NCBI GenBank assembly: GCA_035559815.1
Contig: DATMAT010000057.1
Span: 6,359-70,358 of the forward strand
Length of the DNA stretch: 64,000 nucleotides
Origin: Thermodesulfobacteriota bacterium
GTDB lineage: Bacteria; Desulfobacterota_D; UBA1144; Nemesobacterales; CSP1-2
Direction of reading: 5' to 3'
Both the position numbers and the translations under genes were made by a program. Below, piece by piece: positions 29,147 through 59,247 of this stretch. The notes below the pieces were generated by a model. The model saw only the letters and a program-made list of their open reading frames with translations. It was not told where the DNA came from and did not search any database. Each line of letters begins with the position of its first letter. Within the stretch, counting starts at the first letter, position 1.

Positions 29147-29247
29147 TATTCGAACAAGAGAACGAGGAATAAAGGTTATTAAAACCGGATGGATTCAGAC
29201 ATGATTAAAAACCCGAATTTCCATTTTAGCATGAAAAAGGAGGTACC

Positions 29248-29886
29248 GTGGTGAGAGAATCGAATAATCCGATACAAATAGCCTTAGCATCGCGCTCCCA
29301 GTTTTTTCTCCAAGGAATAAAAAGGATTCTCCAGGATGAGGGCGACATAAAGATAGTTGCCGAGGTTATCGATTCAAAAGAGGTCAAGAAATGTATTAAA
29401 GAGATAAAACCGGACTTTATATTTATCGACAATAGAACCCCGGAGTTTAGCATCCAGGATCAACTGAATTCCTTGATTAATAAAAATTGCACTACCCGGT
29501 TTATCTTATTCGACACCTATAGGGGGGAAAAACATTTTTCACGAAACATCGTATATATAAGCAGGGAAGCAGGCTCCAAAGAATTAATCGAGAGCGTGAG
29601 AAAAAACAGCCGGAGTAATGAAGGTGCTCAAGACAGGAAAGATTACTCGGGCCATGACAAAAATAGGCTTACAAACAGGGAAGCAGACATAGTTAATTTA
29701 ATCAAAATCGGCATGAGCAACAAAAGAATTGCTCAAAGACTCTCCATAAGGGAAAAAACGGTGAAGGCAAACCTGACCAATATTTTTACGAAACTACAGG
29801 TCCAAAGCAGGTACCAGCTCCTAGTGCGGGCCAGGCAGCAAGGCCCTAATAATTCTTCAGAACATGAATTTTCAAAAACCGGCTAA
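29248..29886 (+). CDS. LuxR/NarL-type regulator with an atypical (pseudo-)receiver domain
   Basis: 212 aa. C-terminal HTH LTNREADIVNLIKIGMSNKRIAQRLSIREKTVKANLTNIFTKL. The receiver-like N-terminus has IALASRS where the acidic DD pair normally sits, and retains FIFIDN. Confidence 0.7.
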   Translation: MVRESNNPIQIALASRSQFFLQGIKRILQDEGDIKIVAEVIDSKEVKKCIKEIKPDFIFIDNRTPEFSIQDQLNSLINKNCTTRFILFDTYRGEKHFSRNIVYISREAGSKELIESVRKNSRSNEGAQDRKDYSGHDKNRLTNREADIVNLIKIGMSNKRIAQRLSIREKTVKANLTNIFTKLQVQSRYQLLVRARQQGPNNSSEHEFSKTG

Positions 29887-49336: not shown

Positions 49337-50239
49337 TCAAATAGCCACCTCGGCTATCCCGCCCTTTATAACCTTGATATCATCCTCCTGTCTCGTCACC
49401 TCAAAACCCAGTATGGTCCTTCCATCCTGCCTGCCTATCTCCCACCCGTCAGCAACGAGAACATCACCGGGATAGACCGGGCTGGAGAACCGTACGTTGA
49501 TCCTGGACAACAAGGCCGGGTTGCTATCGGCGTAGCACTCGATTATGGCCCTCATGGCCATAGACATCGTACAAAGACCGTGCACGATTATCCCCTTAAG
49601 CCCGGCTGCTTTGGCCACCTTTTCATCGATATGAATCGGGTTCCGGTCATTGGATGCTTCGGCGTATCTATAGGTGATGTCCTCACTCACCCTTATAATC
49701 CTCCTGAATGCCAGGGGGCTCTCTCCACCTAGCGCAACCGGTTCCTTCTTCCCGTCGTTCTTGGGCTTCTGCCCGCTTCCGATGCCCCTTATGAATATTC
49801 CCCAAACGGAGTCTACAACCTTAACCCCGTTTTGGTCCCTCGAAGCAACATTAAAAACTATGAGCTCGCCGCTGCCCTTATCCTCTATGCTCTTTATCTT
49901 AGCTACGGCGGTGATTTTATCCCCGGGTCGAATCGGCTTGTAGAAATGCATTTCCTGCTCGCCATGGACCAGCATGAGAACATTACGTGCCGCTTGCTCC
50001 CTTCCTCCATGAAGACCTTCGTCAGTCCATATTTCTTCGAGTAAAGGAAGCTCGTAGACAACAGCGAAGCTCGGAGGAGCCATGCCCAGCGGTCCCTCCG
50101 GGCTTAAGGCGCCGTCATAATTGAAGTAGGTTAGGTTACGGGCTCCAATAGCCCAGGCATACTTGTGTATAGCCTCCTCAGTAACCTCGTAAACTATCGG
50201 ACTGAATTCCTTGCCTATGTATTCCCGGTTAAGGCCCAT
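49337..50239 (-). CDS. Double hot-dog MaoC-family (R)-hydratase/dehydratase
   Basis: 300 aa from the ATG preceded by AAGGAGAG. N-terminal MaoC_dehydrat_N-like half, then a C-terminal half with SNDRNPIHID. Confidence 0.75.
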   Translation of the reverse strand: MGLNREYIGKEFSPIVYEVTEEAIHKYAWAIGARNLTYFNYDGALSPEGPLGMAPPSFAVVYELPLLEEIWTDEGLHGGREQAARNVLMLVHGEQEMHFYKPIRPGDKITAVAKIKSIEDKGSGELIVFNVASRDQNGVKVVDSVWGIFIRGIGSGQKPKNDGKKEPVALGGESPLAFRRIIRVSEDITYRYAEASNDRNPIHIDEKVAKAAGLKGIIVHGLCTMSMAMRAIIECYADSNPALLSRINVRFSSPVYPGDVLVADGWEIGRQDGRTILGFEVTRQEDDIKVIKGGIAEVAI

Positions 50240-50778
50240 GTTTATTCTCTCCTTCTTTCTCCTATTTGTGTTTCTTACATCTTTTCCAGAATCTACACCG
50301 ACCACAACCCATTTTAGGTTTGCAACTGCACAGACCTCTACTATAACAAACTGTAAATACGTGAGGAAAATCCTTCCATATTTAGAAATTGGTAAACAGT
50401 TGGGATACCATATTCGCCCCTAAAATCCTCAAAACCCATTGATATATTTGAGTAATTATTGCAGTCAGGGAATTCTTTAGGCCTCATTGCCGTTATTTTT
50501 AATTTAATATGAAAAAGTACTCTTTGTCAACATAATAATTCGCAATTGCAAAATCCTGCTTATTATAATTAGCTCCGTATCACAGACAGAGGCGAACAAT
50601 AATTAACTTTGAAATAGAGGCTAAAGCAATAGGATTTAAGTATGGTTTAAGCACCGGGAATTAAGAATGCCCTTCTCCTGTTTGGTCAATTTTTGAATGT
50701 CCAGGCCTGGATAAGTCCTTGATTTTCCACCAACAGGTAATATCTTATGAGAAAAGCGCCATTTCCGGAGGATTAGAC

Positions 50779-53382
50779 ATGAAGTTTGAAAAATTAACGA
50801 TCAAGGCACAGGAAGCGGTTGGGGAAGCGCAGGCTATCGCCCAAAGGGAAAAGAATCAACTGATCGATATACCGCATTTGCTATTCGCACTACTTAACGA
50901 AGAAGGAATTCCTACTGAGATCATAGGTAAAATAGGTGCCAACCCGCACGCCATTCGTGACCTGGCAAAGAGGGAGATCGGATTATTGCCCAAAATAGAG
51001 GGGGCGGCAGACCAGGTTTATCTAAGCCGGGAAATGAGCCAGGCGCTAAATACTGCCGAGCAAGAAGCCAAATCCCTAGGCGACGAATACATAAGCACGG
51101 AACATCTTCTTCTGGGAATAGCGCAACAAGCTATAGGCAACATTAAAAACGAGTTTAAACGGCTGGGTATAACCAGAGAAAATATACTCAAGGTTCTCAA
51201 AGAGGTAAGAGGCGGGCAAACCATAACCAGCCAAACCCCGGAGGAGACATTCCAGGCCCTCAAGCAGTACGGCAAAGACTTCACCGAGCTTGCCCGTCAG
51301 GGAAAGCTCGACCCGGTAATCGGCCGTGACGACGAGATTAGAAGAGTCATACAGGTGTTATCACGGAGGACTAAGAATAACCCGGTGTTGATAGGAGAGC
51401 CGGGGGTAGGAAAGACGGCAATCGTAGAGGGGTTAGCACAGAGAATAGTAAACGGGGATGTACCCGAGGGCCTCAAAAATAAACGCCTGGTAGCTCTCGA
51501 CGTGGGAGCGCTGGTGGCCGGCGCAAAGTACCGAGGGCAATTCGAAGAGCGGCTCAAAGCGGTGTTGAAAGAAATCACCGAATCTCAGGGTGAGATAATC
51601 CTCTTTATAGATGAGATCCATACCGTCGTTGGAGCCGGCGCAGCCGAGGGAGCGATGGATGCATCAAACATGCTCAAACCAGCCCTGGCCCGCGGCGAGC
51701 TTCACTGTATAGGCGCCACCACACTCGACGAATACCGGAAGCACATTGAAAAGGATGCCGCACTGGAGAGGAGATTCCAGCAGGTATTCGTGGACGAGCC
51801 TACTGTAGAGGAAACGATTTCTATACTCAGGGGTCTCAAAGACAAATACGAGGTTCATCACGGGGTGAAGATAAAAGACGAGGCCCTGATCGCCGCGGCC
51901 GTACTTTCCAACCGATACATAACCGGAAGATTTCTCCCGGATAAGGCCGTTGACTTGATAGACGAAGCCGCAGCAAGGCTGAGGATGGAAATAGACTCCA
52001 TGCCTACTGAGATTGATGAAATCGAGCGGCGGATTATGCAACTGGAGATAGAAAGAGAGGCTCTAAAAAAAGAAAAGGACGAAGCCTCGGTGGAAAAACT
52101 GAATTTGATTGAGAAGCAGATCAGCAACCTCAGGGAAGAAGCGGACAGCTTGAAAGCGCACTGGCAGAGGGAAAAGGAGCATATATCCGAGATCAGAAAG
52201 ATAAAAGAAGAAATCGACAGGGTGAAGATGGAAGCAGAAAAAGCGCAGAGGCTTAGCGACCTCTCCAAGGCATCTGAGCTTCTGTACGGAAAGCTCCCTG
52301 AACTAAACAAGAAACTAGAGGACAAGAGTAAAGAACTGGCCGAGATTCAGAAGGCAAAGAAGATGCTTAAAGAAGAGGTTGACGCCGAGGACATTGCCGA
52401 GATTGTATCCAAGTGGACCGGGATTCCGGTCTCAAGGCTCATGGAGGGCGAAGTGGAAAAGCTCATCCACATGGAAGAGCGTCTTTCAAAAAGAGTGGTG
52501 GGACAAGAAGAGGCAATTAGGGCGGTTTCTGATGCCCTCAGGCGTTCCCGTGCTGGCCTTTCCGACCCGAAGAGGCCGATCGGATCCTTCATTTTCCTTG
52601 GTCCAACCGGCGTGGGAAAAACAGAACTGGCCAGGGCGCTTGCCGAATTCATGTTTGATGACGAGAACGCAATGGTGCGTATTGATATGAGCGAGTACAT
52701 GGAGAAGCACACCGTATCCAGGCTGATAGGCGCTCCTCCGGGCTATGTTGGATATGAAGAGGGTGGACAACTAACCGAGGCGGTAAGAAGACGCCCCTAC
52801 TCCGTGATATTATTCGATGAAATCGAAAAAGCACACAACGATGTTTTCAATATCTTGCTTCAAATCCTGGACGATGGACGTCTTACCGACGGGCATGGAA
52901 GAACTGTAGATTTCAGGAACACCGTTATCATCATGACCTCTAACCTGGGAAGTTCAGAGATACACGGGATGATGAAAGAGGAAGCGGTCAGACAGAAGGT
53001 GATGAATGTGCTGAGAGAGCACTTCAGGCCGGAATTCTTAAACCGAGTGGATGAAATAATCATTTTCCGGTCCCTCTCTATAGAACGGTTAAAGGAGATT
53101 GTCGGTATTCAGATTGAATATCTAAGAAAGAGACTCTCCGAGAAAAAGATCGAACTCGAACTCAAGGAAGAAGCAAAAGAATTACTGGCCGAAAAGGGAT
53201 ACGACCCGGTTTACGGGGCCAGGCCGCTCAAGAGGACCATCCAGCGGCTCATAGAAAACCCATTGGCTACAAAGATTTTGCAAGGAGAATTTAAGGAAGG
53301 AGATACCGTGCTGGTGGATGTGGACAAAAACAAGGAATTTGTCTTCACCAAGAAGCAGAAGAAGAAGGTAGCGGCTAGCTGA
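50779..53382 (+). CDS. clpB: ATP-dependent chaperone ClpB
   Basis: 867 aa from [14 protein letters not shown]. Clp_N repeats, Walker [10 protein letters not shown], a long coiled-coil M-domain, a second Walker [10 protein letters not shown], and GARPLKR. Confidence 0.95.
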
Positions 53383-53392
53383 TGCATACGTC

Positions 53393-53419
53393 AAGGGGCG
53401 CGCTGCAGCGTGCCCCTAC
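53393..53419. repeat. GTAG...CTAC-type palindrome copy (AAGGGGCGCGCTGCAGCGTGCCCCTAC)
   Basis: Read directly. Starts 11 nt after the clpB stop, between convergent genes. Confidence 0.6.
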
Positions 53420-53434
53420 AACAACAATCACAAA

Positions 53435-53875
53435 TCAATCCAATGGATTCATCACGTTTAGAAATTCGAATCTGGCAAAGTGTTTTGTGTTTCTCGTAAT
53501 TATTCCATCGACCCCGTTATCCAGAAGCGTTGCGACAAAAACTAGGTCAAATATATCTTGCCCCGCTATGTCATAGTTAGATAGCAAGTTTATGACATTT
53601 CGCAAATTGCTTTTACGGGGATATATCTTGGGTATGTTTTTAGCTCTTATATAAGTTTCTATTATTTCTCTTGCCTGACCAGTTGGTAAAGGCTTCTCCA
53701 CCCGTCGTGCGTTTGTAATAACAGAATAGAATTCGTATAAGCTTTGATAGGGTAAGCAGGTACTTATGCTTCCGGTTAATACCTCTTCCTTTAAGAAAGC
53801 ATGGGCTTTCGGATTAAGTGGGCTGTCCAGATTGAAGGCGTAAACTAAAATATTGGTGTCAATAGCATATACCAC
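53435..53875 (-). CDS. PIN-domain toxin (VapC-like)
   Basis: 146 aa with a GTG start sharing 1 nt with the upstream TAG. Acidic residues in IDTNIL, YEF and IFDLVFVA, plus C-terminal TRNTKHF. Confidence 0.8.
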   Translation of the reverse strand: MVYAIDTNILVYAFNLDSPLNPKAHAFLKEEVLTGSISTCLPYQSLYEFYSVITNARRVEKPLPTGQAREIIETYIRAKNIPKIYPRKSNLRNVINLLSNYDIAGQDIFDLVFVATLLDNGVDGIITRNTKHFARFEFLNVMNPLD

Positions 53876-54189
53876 TAATTATTACCCATTTTACGGTCAA
53901 GATACTCTTCATAAACGCTTTTTCTCGTTAAGGCTTCCTCTTTGATCTCGCCTAAATGCCCTGTAGGGATTTCCTTTAATTCTATGCCTTCTTCCTTACT
54001 TAAAGCTCTACCCCGTCTTAAGAGAAATTCTCTCAAGTCCTCTTCCGTTACCCTGTAGCTGCGTCCTACCTTGACCGCTTTAAGACGCCCCTGTTCAATA
54101 TAACCTCTCAGAGTTACTTTATTGACCCCCAGAATTTTTGATAACTCGTCTAAGTTATAAATCTTTAGTCCCGCTACCCTTATCGGCAT
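53875..54189 (-). CDS. Excisionase/MerR-type HTH antitoxin partner of the PIN toxin
   Basis: 104 aa. YNLDELSKILGVNKVTLRGYIEQGRLKAVKVGRSYRVTEEDLREFL. Confidence 0.65.
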   Translation of the reverse strand: MPIRVAGLKIYNLDELSKILGVNKVTLRGYIEQGRLKAVKVGRSYRVTEEDLREFLLRRGRALSKEEGIELKEIPTGHLGEIKEEALTRKSVYEEYLDRKMGNN

Positions 54190-54887
54190 CTTATTGCCTT
54201 TTGAACATGTTCTTAGTACTATATTATAACTTTAAATTAGTTTGTCAAGCGTTTTCTATGTTAACGTAACTTTTTATAGATCGGATTCTTCTAACAGGGG
54301 TGGCAGAAACGTCTACGGTAAAGGTTTTGCTGTAATTTAAGGCGAGCTTGGAGAGCAGTTCTGGATAAAAAGACGGCGCTCTGGGATTTTCCTATGTTCC
54401 TAGTTGTTGTCACGCTTCCTTTCTTCATTGTAGCCCTTTACACCTCATATATGATAATGTTCTGGGCTACAATTTTTTTCACCACGAGCATTTTACTGAA
54501 ACTCTGTCTGTCAACTGAATGGTGCTCTTCTATGAACAGAAATAACAATTTTGTCATTAAAAACACCACTAATCTTGACTTGAAATCAGGTTTTTTGTAC
54601 TTTATGGGCTATAATCAGTGAGAGCGTATGTTTGCGGTACAACTCACTTAATAAAATGTTATATTGCGTTTTTCAATCTAAGTAAGTTAACCACTAGCCC
54701 ATGGGTAGACTGTCTATTCCTAATCCGCTCAAAGTTGAGTTCGCTACCGTTGAAGCTCTTTGGAACTCAACAGGAAAAACTCGACGTGTTGATGCCCTGA
54801 TCCTATCATGGGTTAAATATGAGAAGCAGCTTCGGCGTCTATTCTGCTTTCTAGTGTTCCAACACCCGAAGATCAGCTCTGATAAGA

Positions 54888-55292
54888 TTGATGAAATCGT
54901 CACTGTTCAAAAGAAACCTTTATCCAGAAACTTTCATCGCTGGCATCAAAGCTCTTGGCGTTACTACAGTACCAGAACTGCTTGATGAGCGTCATGCAAA
55001 ACTCTGGGCGGAGATATGTCGCATTAAGAAGTATAGAAACAAGCTTATTCATGGTCAGATAACCGGCCAAGGTATCTCATCTGCTCAACTGGAGCAGGAT
55101 ACTCTCTGGATTATCGAATGGATTTCCTGCCTTGCTCAAGCTGCGGAAAATACCTTTGGCTACGATGGACTTAAGCGGAACACATACCGCAATGCCAAGA
55201 GCATTTCAAAGATCAATGTTGAGCGCTATCCATTCTCAACGGCTGAAGAGTTCAAGCAATGGCTGTCTCGGTTAGTAGCTAAGTTTGGCTAA
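54888..55292 (+). CDS. HEPN-motif protein (R-x4-H), possibly the 3' part of a frameshifted longer gene
   Basis: 134 aa. KYRNKLIHGQ fits the HEPN R-x4-6-H motif within a helical context. ORF 54701-54985 overlaps it in another frame. Confidence 0.4.
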   Translation: MMKSSLFKRNLYPETFIAGIKALGVTTVPELLDERHAKLWAEICRIKKYRNKLIHGQITGQGISSAQLEQDTLWIIEWISCLAQAAENTFGYDGLKRNTYRNAKSISKINVERYPFSTAEEFKQWLSRLVAKFG

Positions 55293-55334
55293 CAAAGTTC
55301 ATTTATATTTGAGTATTCATTTTGAGGATAGGAA

Positions 55335-56699
55335 ATGTCAGACCATACAACTGCGTTAGTACCCCTGGAATCCTGGTGTTATAACTCGCCGGAGTTGCGT
55401 GCATCTGGTAAATCGATAGATGTAGGCTTACTAGTTGAGGCACTTATCTATTACGATCGCGTTATCGTTAATGTTGGTAACCAACCACAATTTGCAGAAT
55501 TATTAAATTGGTTTATCGCTCAGAAAAAGTACAATGATTTCCTCGCCCTTGTTAATGATGGCGTCATAAGAATATAGGATTACGCGTTCTCAACCAACGC
55601 CATTTTAAAAGACGGCGTTTATTCGATCTGGAATATCCAAGATTCTATTCAAGCGCAACCAAATACTTTTGATCAGCGTTTTCTATATCACAAAGATATA
55701 CAAACTTGTTTAAATCATGCACGACAAAGGCAGAAACTGTATAAAGCACTGAGGGATAAAGTTATTGAAGTAAAAGCTGATGAATTTGGAAGCGCTATAG
55801 AAAACGCTAGACGGGATTATGACGATGCTAATAGAAATGCGCTAATAATTCAAGCTTTTGTTGATGAATTATATAAAATTAAAAACTTAGGTAGCGTACC
55901 AGAAGTAAGTGCTAGTGTAATAGCTTCACCAGATGGTGGTCGAAAGCATATCACTTGGAATGTTGATTTTGATCATCTTTCTTACATAGCAGGAAAAGAA
56001 CTCAATTTCCATCGTGGTACGCCACTCACTGCGGGGGCTATTTCAAATAGGCTACTGTGGTCAGCAGCTTCATTGGAATGTGACTTGTATTTAGGACAAC
56101 CAATCAGTGTATTGGTAGGTGATAAACTATATGAAAGCGGTAAGCAAATTAGCAAGGTTCATTCTATTATTGAAGAGCTACATCAGAAGGTAGAGTTTCC
56201 AGATTTACGTCAGCTAGTAAATTGCGGGAAGATAGGCCTTAAAGAAATTTTAATCATAAGAAAAAAGGCTCGAAAATTTCGTGAATGGCTACAACAAGAA
56301 TCGGATCGAGACAGGGATGCAATAATTGCATACCATCACGAAGTTGCCAAAGAGGCAGGGTTTACAAAGTTGGGTCGCAAAAGACTAAACCTCATAGGTG
56401 TGATCGGAGGTGGAGCTATTGGTTCTGTTGTAGGAAGCGTTGTTTCAGGCCATTCAGGTGCTGCATTAGGTGGTGCAGCAGGTAGTACTGTAGGATATGT
56501 ATTAGACATTGCCTCTAAGCTAGGGGCAGATTGGAAACCAGTAGTATTTGGTAACTGGTTTAGGGACCGGATTGAAAAAGTATTAGATAACAAAGAGCGA
56601 CTGGCACTAATGGCATTCAAACCGCTCAGCTCATCGGCTGCTTTAAACGCAGTGTTAGAAGATAGAGTTAAGCCCGTCGTAAGGCAAACGCTTCATTAA
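55335..56699 (+). pseudogene. 454-codon reading frame interrupted by one in-frame TAG (55575-55577); function unknown; glycine-zipper membrane segment near the C-terminus
   Basis: I translated 55578-56072 by hand and found no further stops, in the same frame as both listed ORFs (55335-55577 and 56073-56699). GAGGATAGG Shine-Dalgarno before ATG 55335. C-terminal GVIGGGAIGSVVGSVVSGHSGAALGGAAGSTVG. Confidence 0.5.
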
Positions 56700-57418
56700 G
56701 AAACAGACAAAATAATCTCGTCGACCACTGCCTCAGGCTCTTTTGCCTCGGTTATAGCTCTTCCTATCACCAAGTAATCTGCTCCGAGAGAAACGGCTTC
56801 GGAGGGGGTTACAACCCTCTTTTGATCATGGATACCTAGACCCAAGCGAACACCAGGCACAACCAGTATAAATCTATCTCCAAATTCTTTCCTCAAAATC
56901 TCAACCTCTTTTCCGGAGGCAACCAGCCCGTCCACCCCGGCTTTATCGGCAAGTGCGGCAAGTCTAATCACTTCTTCTTGAGAACCATAGTTAATACCAA
57001 TCTCCCTTAAATTTTCTTCGGCCTGACTGGTTAGCACGGTTACCGCCAGGACAAGCGGCCTGGGTTTTGACAGTTTCTGAGACTCATCTCGAACTGTTTC
57101 TACCGTTGCTTTCATCATTTCTAATCCACCGAGAGCGTGAATGGTAAACATCTTAATACCATGTTGGACTACCTGACGAGATGCCTTTTCTACTGTCGAG
57201 GGAATATCGTGGAACTTGAGATCAAGAAAAATATCCACGCCGATATTGATAAATTCTCTTATACCTTCTGGTCCTGAGTTTAAAAAAAGGATTGGCCCGA
57301 CCTTGAATGCTTTAATTTTTTGTTTGAGTCTTTCCACCCAGCTTTTAGCTTCTTTAAACTTGGGAAAATCCAGGGCCAAGATAATTCGCTCTTCGGGTCT
57401 GAGATTAGGTTTAACCAT
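56696..57418 (-). CDS. pyrF: Orotidine 5'-phosphate decarboxylase
   Basis: 240 aa. ILALDF, DLKFHDIPSTV and VVPGVR motifs. Confidence 0.9.
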   Translation of the reverse strand: MVKPNLRPEERIILALDFPKFKEAKSWVERLKQKIKAFKVGPILFLNSGPEGIREFINIGVDIFLDLKFHDIPSTVEKASRQVVQHGIKMFTIHALGGLEMMKATVETVRDESQKLSKPRPLVLAVTVLTSQAEENLREIGINYGSQEEVIRLAALADKAGVDGLVASGKEVEILRKEFGDRFILVVPGVRLGLGIHDQKRVVTPSEAVSLGADYLVIGRAITEAKEPEAVVDEIILSVS

Positions 57419-57531
57419 GTTTTGAAGTTAGAAGCCACAAATTGACACAGATGGACACGAATGAAAAGAAATTTGTGATTTTAGCACTGAAGACAAATCG
57501 TTTTTATTCGTGTAAATTCGTGGCTACTTGA

Positions 57532-59247
57532 TCACTTTGAACCAAGAATCATCTCAACTTCTTTCTCCACTTCTTCGATCTTTACCTTCTTAGAGATCCC
57601 ACCTTTTCTCAACTTTATCTCTGCTGCGCCTTCCTTGATGGTCCTGGGCCCGACGGTAACCTGAATGGGCATACCCATCAAGTCCGCATCCTTAAACTTG
57701 AATCCGGCGCTTTCTTCCCTGTCGTCGATAATCGCCTCCACACCGCGGTCGAGCAGATTTCTATAAATTTCCTCGGCAACGTTTTTTACTCGCTCCTCTT
57801 TCATATTGAGCGGAAGAATAACCACCTGAAAAGGGGCCAGAGAAAGCGGTAGTACTATTCCATTTTCATCATAGTTCTGTTCTATCGCCGCCGCAACCGT
57901 ACGACCGATGCCAATACCGTAGCACCCCATTATGAATAATCTCTCCTTCCCGTTTGCATCGATAAAAGTGGCATTCATGCTCTCGCTATACTTGGTTCCG
58001 AGCTTAAAAACATGGCCTACCTCGATTCCTCTACTGGAGCGGAGAACACCGCCTTTACATCTCGGACACGGGTCACCATCAGATGCCACCCTAACGTCTG
58101 CAAATTCACTTACACGAAAATCCCTGTCCAGGTTTACATTAATCACATGGTAATCCCTTTTGTTCGCCCCGGTAACTGCATTCCTTATGCCCTTAATAGA
58201 CCGGTCGGCAATAATTCTAATCTTGAGTCCAACCGGGCCGCTAAATCCGAGCGGCCCCGTCGTTACCTCTTCGATCCTATTCGGTGTGGCAAGCTCGACT
58301 GTATCTGCACCGATCGCTTTTTTGAGCTTGGTCAAGCTGAGCTCATGGTTCCCCCGGACAAGCGCAGCCACCGGTTGGCCATCAGCCTCCACTATCATAG
58401 TTTTTATCAAATCACTCGGTTTAACCTTTAAGAACGTGGCAACCTGCTCCACCGTCTTTAAGCCGGGGGTATGAACCTCCTGAATTGGTCTTTCTTCGAG
58501 GCCTTTTTCCGTCGTTTCTCCACCGCCCTCCCCTATCTCCGCCAGCTCCAGATTAGCCGCATAATCGCACTTGTTGCAGCTCATAATCACATCCTCACCG
58601 GTCGGGGCCAGGACCATGAACTCGTGGGAAAAACTACCTCCGATATTACCCGTATCCGCCAGCACCGCGCGAAACTCAAGCCCGCATCTCTCGAAAATAC
58701 GGTTATAGGCTTCGTACATCAGCCAGTAGGATTTATCAGCCCCTTCGTCGTCGGCATCAAAGCTGTAGGCGTCCTTCATTATGAATTCCCTGGCCCGCAT
58801 AACGCCGAACCGCGGGCGGATTTCGTCCCGGAATTTTGTCTGAATCTGGTACAGGTTGACCGGCAGTTGCTTATAAGACCTTATTTCCCGGCGAACGATG
58901 TCCGTTATAATCTCCTCGTGAGTGGGGCCGAGGCAGAATTCCCTCTCCGCCCTGTCCTTAAACCGGAGGAGTTCCCTTCCGTATTTATCCCACCTTCCGC
59001 TTTCCTTCCAGAGTTCCGCTGGTAAAACCGAGGGCATGAGCAATTCAATAGCCCCGGCTCGGTTCATTTCTTCCCTCACTATATTCTCAACCTTTTTTAT
59101 CGAGCGAAGTCCGAGCGGAAGATAGTTATAAATCCCGGCAGCCAGTTTTCTTATCATCCCGGCACGCACCATCAGCTTATGGCTTATCACCTCGGCATCG
59201 GCAGGGTCTTCTTTTAGAGTAGGAAGGAAATAATTAGAGTATCTCAA
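57532..59247 (-). CDS. proS: Prolyl-tRNA synthetase (bacterial type with editing insertion)
   Basis: 571 aa. MRYSNYFLPTLKEDPADAE N-terminus, class II motifs, an INS domain and a C-terminal anticodon-binding domain. Confidence 0.95.
   Translation of the reverse strand: MRYSNYFLPTLKEDPADAEVISHKLMVRAGMIRKLAAGIYNYLPLGLRSIKKVENIVREEMNRAGAIELLMPSVLPAELWKESGRWDKYGRELLRFKDRAEREFCLGPTHEEIITDIVRREIRSYKQLPVNLYQIQTKFRDEIRPRFGVMRAREFIMKDAYSFDADDEGADKSYWLMYEAYNRIFERCGLEFRAVLADTGNIGGSFSHEFMVLAPTGEDVIMSCNKCDYAANLELAEIGEGGGETTEKGLEERPIQEVHTPGLKTVEQVATFLKVKPSDLIKTMIVEADGQPVAALVRGNHELSLTKLKKAIGADTVELATPNRIEEVTTGPLGFSGPVGLKIRIIADRSIKGIRNAVTGANKRDYHVINVNLDRDFRVSEFADVRVASDGDPCPRCKGGVLRSSRGIEVGHVFKLGTKYSESMNATFIDANGKERLFIMGCYGIGIGRTVAAAIEQNYDENGIVLPLSLAPFQVVILPLNMKEERVKNVAEEIYRNLLDRGVEAIIDDREESAGFKFKDADLMGMPIQVTVGPRTIKEGAAEIKLRKGGISKKVKIEEVEKEVEMILGSK

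Follow-up and report, generated by a model that had tools for sequence, protein, structure and literature searches.

A probable recent nonsense pseudogene of an acquired glycine-zipper gene in a low-GC islet of a Thermodesulfobacteriota genome

What does a single TAG signify in a bacterial reading frame that is otherwise open from end to end? The question is raised by a frame on the forward strand, positions 55335-56699, of a 64,000-nucleotide stretch of contig DATMAT010000057.1 (assembly GCA_035559815.1, Thermodesulfobacteriota bacterium); the whole stretch is referred to as the window, and the frame encodes a protein with a glycine-zipper membrane segment near its C-terminus. The original prediction for this locus had left three options: a recent nonsense mutation, a sequencing error and leaky read-through. 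The first is favoured and the other two are less supported, because full-length homologs carry tyrosine at the interrupted position, the rest of the frame displays no decay, an adjacent gene bears an independent 8-nt deletion, and a second assembly is identical. The broken gene is probably a real, recent nonsense pseudogene of a horizontally acquired single gene, and the feature looks like ordinary gene decay, not special decoding.

Translation of the frame yields 453 sense codons, arranged as 80 sense codons, a TAG at 55575-55577, 373 sense codons and a terminal TAA at 56697-56699. The original prediction had described one TAG in an otherwise open frame on the basis of a manual reading that might have missed a second stop between 55578 and 56072; the translation finds no further stop, there or elsewhere. 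The start signal had been called good, and a Shine-Dalgarno-like sequence, GAGGATAGGA (55324-55333, forward strand), does precede the ATG at 55335, with GAGGA/AGGA placed 2-11 nt 5' of it. The N-terminal part of the gene (55335-55574, forward strand, 80 codons) aligns to residues 1-80 of homologs of about 420 aa, and the resulting 80-aa stub is the sole product that can be made from the native start. The frame past the TAG remains homologous to the family over residues 82-420 (55578-56594, forward strand), is free of stops and retains the conserved residues. At 40% GC stop codons occur at a frequency of about 0.063 per codon by our own arithmetic, and the probability of a 373-codon open run arising by chance in such DNA is about 3e-11. 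Given this probability and the end-to-end homology to a protein family (E = 6e-211), the frame is not a product of chance. The length of about 454 codons given earlier describes the frame, but not the family, the true length of which is about 420 aa.

Joined across the TAG, the frame was compared with 5.8 billion proteins and gave 387 matches at E <= 1e-3. The best 120 of these 387 are 397-466 aa long, are 53-74% identical to the query and cover 87-94% of it; the closest homolog (P0001; E = 6e-211) shows 74% identity over 93% of the query. The homologs are single uninterrupted proteins, typically of about 412-435 aa, from many bacterial phyla and one archaeon. The full length of the homologs, a point that the original prediction had wished to see checked, runs counter to the idea that they are naturally two genes. 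Gene callers annotate an 80-aa and a 204-aa product at this locus, which speaks for 55335-55577 and 56073-56699 being naturally separate genes. Against this, the homologs run unbroken through the junction and through the 165 codons that separate the called open reading frames (ORFs), and the ORF list shows no in-frame start codon (ATG, GTG or TTG) from 55578 to 56072. A profile search of 1.84 billion cluster representatives, with 672 members at E <= 1e-3 and 162 at E <= 1e-30, likewise returned almost only a single architecture of about 415-430 aa; the shorter entries could stem from gene calls cut off where contigs end. Two separate genes thus have practically no chance of being the right description. 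The same uniformity means that domain shuffling offered no functional clue among the representatives searched.

The window frame aligns to the family end to end, and all 29 columns that are invariant in 114 homologs are kept in it, as judged by eye from the alignments. It differs from the family in the TAG at codon 81, which denies it a single uninterrupted ORF and makes the window copy a pseudogene, or at best a conditionally expressed family member. In an alignment of 18 sequences the TAG column holds tyrosine in 15 homologs, phenylalanine in one and histidine in one; in the alignment of 114 sequences it holds tyrosine in 110, histidine in two, phenylalanine in one and cysteine in one. The codon for Tyr81 at 27 distinct homolog loci is TAT (17) or TAC (10), and in the closest homolog ATA TAT GAT stands at the place of ATA TAG GAT in the window. 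Since the homologs use TAT or TAC, a single third-base change to TAG is enough to explain the stop, which replaces the nearly invariant Tyr81 by an amber codon. Among species-representative genomes 33 loci of the family were found, most with an uninterrupted ORF. The copies at L034, L036 and L038 look frameshifted, and those at L037, L040, L041 and L044 look reduced to pieces about 100-175 aa long; in both groups the cause may lie in errors of sequencing or in the ends of contigs.

The frame downstream of the stop shows no detectable relaxation of evolution when its conserved columns are compared with those of the homologs. There, one of 82 conserved columns deviates from the 90% consensus in the window; the homologs deviate at 2.5 +/- 1.9 columns on average, and 88% of them depart at least as much as the window does. 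A scripted check, with the TAG excluded, counted two departures among 101 columns conserved at 90% or more. This points to a recent lesion: the sequence after the TAG keeps the invariant residues and departs from the consensus less than a typical homolog does.

A frame perfectly preserved but for one codon is also what an error would leave, and this counts against gene decay. The source is a metagenome-assembled genome (MAG), and the gene might be intact in the organism, with the TAG being an artefact of sequencing or assembly, or a variant chosen from a mixed population that also contains TAT or TAC. A contig of the Logan assembly of run SRR7882662 is 100% identical to window positions 49346-58789 (9,444 nt, no mismatches or gaps) and includes both the TAG and the deletion in the neighbouring gene. 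This contig was made by another assembler, probably from the same reads as the GenBank assembly; the identity therefore argues against an assembly artefact, but not against a systematic read error, and two identical assemblies probably derived from the same run leave that much room for the artefact. On the other side, the two assemblers arrived at the same base within long unbranched contigs, and errors at the level of the consensus are rare. No intact near-identical allele was found in JGI metagenome contigs with an exact-flank pattern that allowed any base at the mutated position. The deletion in the adjacent gene, independent of the TAG, is not explained by short-read substitution errors. 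Taken with these points, an artefact or a chosen variant appears unlikely.

The adjacent gene (54701-55292, forward strand) is HEPN-like and carries an RNKLIH motif. The original prediction had placed a HEPN-motif gene next to the broken frame, which is correct, but this gene is itself frameshifted. Joining ORF 54701-54985 to ORF 54888-55292 gives a protein of 197 aa, and over 300 homologs, uniformly about 196-201 aa long, align with it at about 70% identity and 97-100% coverage. In alignments of both protein and DNA the window lacks 8 nt between 54908 and 54909, a point at which the 11 aligned homologs do not differ in length. Such a gap is not a typical substitution-type sequencing error. 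It lies about 670 nt from the TAG, and this independent upstream lesion is the strongest support for genuine decay. In the proposed course of events, the HEPN-like gene would have been destroyed separately from its neighbour.

Functional read-through is the remaining alternative. Under it, UAG would be decoded by pyrrolysine, by a suppressor tRNA or by near-cognate tRNA-Tyr or tRNA-Gln, so that a toxic full-length protein would be made in small, harmless amounts. The fully conserved downstream frame is in keeping with this, and a toxic membrane effector could plausibly gain from a translational safety catch; some Desulfobacterota relatives encode pyrrolysine (Pyl) systems. The window itself gives no encouragement: TAG is the ordinary stop of six of its 35 long ORFs, no tRNA gene, pylT included, lies within it, and the 120 nt from the TAG onward form no significant RNA structure (folding z = -1.76; 12 of 200 shuffles fold as well). 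The interval 53.3-57.5 kb has no match to Rfam elements. Judged within the window, none of the marks of programmed UAG recoding is present, that is, a UAG that does not serve as terminator, a dedicated tRNA and a stimulatory structure. Moreover, none of the 114 aligned homologs has a stop at codon 81, where 110 encode tyrosine, and the neighbouring gene is broken too, which fits decay. We consider read-through very improbable.

The gene is foreign in composition. Its GC content of 0.399 is the lowest of the 35 long ORFs in the window, and the GC content at third codon positions (GC3) of the gene core is 0.286, against 0.518 +/- 0.057 in 34 background ORFs (z = -4.1). Copies 55-60% identical to the window protein occur in a Methanoregulaceae archaeon, gammaproteobacteria, Chloroflexota and other groups. 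The low GC3 and the presence of such similar copies in distant lineages point to a foreign origin of the gene, and the 60% identity of the archaeal copy, extending across domains of life, implies horizontal transfer. The second-lowest GC among the long ORFs, 0.408 against a mean of 0.485, belongs to 29230-29886 (forward strand), possibly another acquired gene.

The low composition extends beyond the gene to an islet of about 3.3 kb between clpB, which ends at 53382, and pyrF. Windowed GC is 0.35-0.44 across 53.4-56.4 kb and 0.47-0.55 in the flanks. The AT-rich islet of the original prediction, for which a calculation of GC and codon usage had been suggested, is thus real, but it begins at about 53.4 kb, directly after clpB, and not at 54.2 kb. 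From clpB onward the islet holds a PIN/HTH_17 pair, a 510-nt spacer, the HEPN-like pseudogene and the glycine-zipper pseudogene. Both neighbours named earlier, a VapBC pair and pyrF, proved to be as described. The VapBC-like pair at the left end (53435-54189, reverse strand) consists of a PIN toxin at 53435-53875 (PF01850, E = 4.4e-7, 31 bits against a cut-off of 23.6) and an HTH_17/MerR-type antitoxin at 53875-54189 (PF12728, E = 6.5e-14, 52.4 bits). The toxin gene lies downstream of the small DNA-binding antitoxin gene and overlaps it, base 53875 being common to both, as is characteristic of VapBC. The vapBC genes have a GC content of 0.39-0.41, and the HEPN-like gene one of 0.44. The right border is formed by the convergent housekeeping gene pyrF (56696-57418, reverse strand; orotidine monophosphate decarboxylase), recognised from the OMPdecase Pfam label on the identical Logan contig. 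The spacer at 54190-54700 lies between the divergent vapB and HEPN-like genes, has 36% GC and contains short ORFs only; the region's best sigma-70-like match, TTGACA-16-TAATAT on the minus strand (54248-54221), is located upstream of vapB. Nothing was found to mark the borders of the islet: a tRNA is missing from the window, the islet is not flanked by convincing repeats, whether direct or inverted, and terminator-like sites are lacking. As both the glycine-zipper and the HEPN-like gene are broken, the clpB-pyrF islet is probably decaying accessory cargo of this Thermodesulfobacteriota MAG.

The HEPN-like protein resembles the RiboL-PSP HEPN nucleases (PF18735) in the Rx4H motif, RNKLIH or RNKLMH, retained in its homologs, and in a weak hit that covers the C-terminal half of this profile. 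The window copy reads YRNKLIHGQ and so carries the Rx4-6H catalytic motif, the arginine and histidine of which are at least 90% conserved in the homologs. It differs in its score, 17.7 bits against a cut-off of 28.4 and limited to profile positions 100-191, in its frameshift, and in having no link to the glycine-zipper family at the loci examined. The HEPN-like family has no above-threshold Pfam, NCBIfam or PADLOC model. A conserved two-gene cassette of the two broken genes was considered and rejected, as tblastn of the HEPN protein against 44 homolog loci found nothing; a 197-aa neighbour of the closest glycine-zipper homolog, considered as a HEPN partner, is an unrelated membrane protein. 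The closest HEPN-like homolog (L046/L047, 1-5615) ends a run of defence-type genes (MZB, PLDc_2, HATPase_c_3, Vsr and NOV_C). This context is consistent with the HEPN-like gene being a defence-island gene, in company that differs from that in the window.

The glycine-rich hydrophobic segment noticed earlier was confirmed. It spans residues of about 351-395 (56385-56519, forward strand; LNLIGVIGGGAIGSVVGSVVSG...GAALGGAAGSTVGYVLDIA) and was delimited by sub-threshold Pfam matches and hydropathy: residues of about 351-372 have the top 19-residue Kyte-Doolittle score of the protein, 1.86, and the repeated small-xxx-small (GxxxG) spacing can be read directly in GVIGGGAIGSVVGSVVSG...GAALGGAAGSTVG. 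The window protein stays below the Pfam gathering thresholds, with 19.2 against 28.9 bits for Gly-zipper_YMGG (PF13441), 16.4 against 25 for Gly-zipper_Omp (PF13488) and 10.9 against 24.2 for Rick_17kDa_Anti (PF05433). Among the 114 family members the weak Pfam matches are to YMGG (26), C19orf12-like (15), DUF6861 (13), Gly-zipper_Omp (13) and Rick_17kDa (13).

Beyond this segment the window protein carries a C-terminal extension of about 35 codons (56595-56699, forward strand) that has no counterpart in the closest homologs. After the VFGxW motif the tail runs for 34 aa; among the homologs the median is 14 aa and the longest tail 34 aa, so that at least one homolog has a tail as long. The closest homolog ends with GAT AAA AAA TAG where the window reads GAT AAC AAA GAG; the GC3 of the extension is 0.43, host-like, against 0.29 for the gene core; and the TAA of the broken gene overlaps the pyrF stop by 4 nt. 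On these sequence features the native stop may have been lost in a second, T-to-G event, with the frame running on into host DNA as far as the pyrF stop, or the extension may represent an insertion junction, 35 codons being too few for a firm statement on its origin.

The original prediction recognised no domain in the protein, and this holds against Pfam, NCBIfam, PHROGs, PADLOC, the sequences of the PDB and fold searches. The family of about 420 aa has no above-threshold Pfam, NCBIfam or PADLOC model. PADLOC-DB 2.0.0 gave zero families at E <= 1 for either the glycine-zipper protein or the HEPN-like ORF, PHROGs gave weak matches only (E >= 0.001), nearly all in the glycine-rich C-terminal region, and a profile search of PDB sequences returned noise only (E >= 0.46). 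The Rossmann-like (HUP) fold of class I aminoacyl-tRNA synthetases and cyclodipeptide synthases is named here among the closest systems; the fold searches found no convincing relative of the family. The closest homolog was modelled with AlphaFold2 on the 114-sequence alignment, with good overall confidence (pLDDT 80.9, pTM 0.84); a well-defined alpha/beta plus helical domain spans residues 1-270, and the zipper at 345-383 is of low confidence. The predicted architecture of the family is a cytoplasmic alpha/beta plus helical domain of about 340 aa, a glycine-zipper membrane hairpin and a conserved DWKPVVFGNW tail. Invariant charged residues are E35, K147, D161, R167, D250, D263, K264, E267, R316, D326, H334 and E336. 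The family shares with the glycine-zipper families PF13441, PF13488, PF05433 and the C19orf12-like PF20721 the GxxxG-type repeats in a hydrophobic C-terminal hairpin. The proteins of those families are short and stand alone, as lipoproteins or membrane proteins, whereas here the zipper occupies only about 45 of about 420 residues and is joined to a large conserved cytoplasmic domain without known relatives.

The 33 loci, from a scan of one genome per species, are scattered over Syntrophaceae, Ignavibacteria, Microbulbifer, Cellvibrio, Marinobacterium, Anaerolineales and other Chloroflexota, Planctomycetota (Pirellulales, Isosphaeraceae and an anammox lineage), Acidobacteriota, Gemmatimonadota, and alpha- and betaproteobacteria. 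The 128 ORFs that flank the gene at 38 homolog loci include four phage integrases, the commonest family, two TniQ genes and two IS200 transposases; no recurrent partner gene emerges from them, and the family gene is solitary. Integrases adjoin it at L001, L006 and L009, and HigBA at L010 and on the P0002 contig; a Hhe/PDC-S37 helicase occurs at L007, TniQ at L029 and a type III restriction-modification system at L033. At L003 the gene stands among plain housekeeping genes, between fabH and prfB. In Ca. Reddybacter (L001, 3870-13200) and Microbulbifer variabilis (L009, 3870-8546) it resides in an integrase-bearing island beside gltX, and the former island additionally carries a reverse-transcriptase (RVT_1) gene; the gltX side may be a shared integration hotspot.

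The original prediction saw acquired defence or abortive-infection cargo in this region. Acquisition is upheld by composition and by the patchy distribution over phyla; the defence part is still an inference, with no defence model matched and no conserved partner, the HEPN-like gene included. The neighbouring integrases, TniQ, IS200, HigBA, type III restriction-modification system and Hhe/PDC-S37 helicase suggest a conflict system, and it is conceivable, at a level well short of an even chance, that the intact protein was a costly membrane effector of a defence or abortive-infection-like type. Some single-protein effectors of defence or abortive infection have a soluble part that senses and a transmembrane part that kills, as do the two-transmembrane (2TM) effectors of CBASS and Pycsar and the CARF-TM protein Cam1. 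The family resembles these in combining a soluble N-terminal domain with a C-terminal membrane hairpin, and it resembles defence effectors generally in its sporadic distribution driven by horizontal transfer, its low-GC islet and its neighbours: integrases, toxin-antitoxin pairs, restriction-modification systems and defence helicases. It differs from the CBASS and Pycsar effectors and Cam1 in having no PADLOC match and no conserved cyclase or CRISPR partner, and its N-terminal domain cannot be recognised as CARF, as SAVED or as another known sensor. Full-text searches of the literature for a tie between glycine zippers and phage defence returned tangential mentions only. A more specific proposal, which is tentative and somewhat more doubtful still, is that the family constitutes an undescribed single-gene conflict or defence effector in which a cytoplasmic domain of new fold, acting as sensor or enzyme, would gate a membrane pore formed by the glycine zipper. 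On either view, the N-terminal domain would sense or process something and control the perturbation of the membrane by the zipper. Loss of such a gene would be neutral or advantageous to the host, and its nonsense loss, like the loss of the HEPN-like gene, would reflect the dispensability or cost of such cargo. If the effector is indeed suicidal, its recurrent loss of function, in this genome and perhaps in several more, would be due to the burden that a suicide gene imposes.

As a feature of the genome, the locus is ordinary: a recent nonsense pseudogene beside a frameshift pseudogene in a small acquired islet. For its annotation, the two ORF calls are best merged into one pseudogene. A modestly useful by-product is the delimitation of a compact, highly conserved and undescribed family that is scattered over many bacterial phyla and at least one archaeon. 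Judging by its architecture and neighbourhoods, this family is worth testing by experiment as a possible membrane-acting defence or toxin protein.
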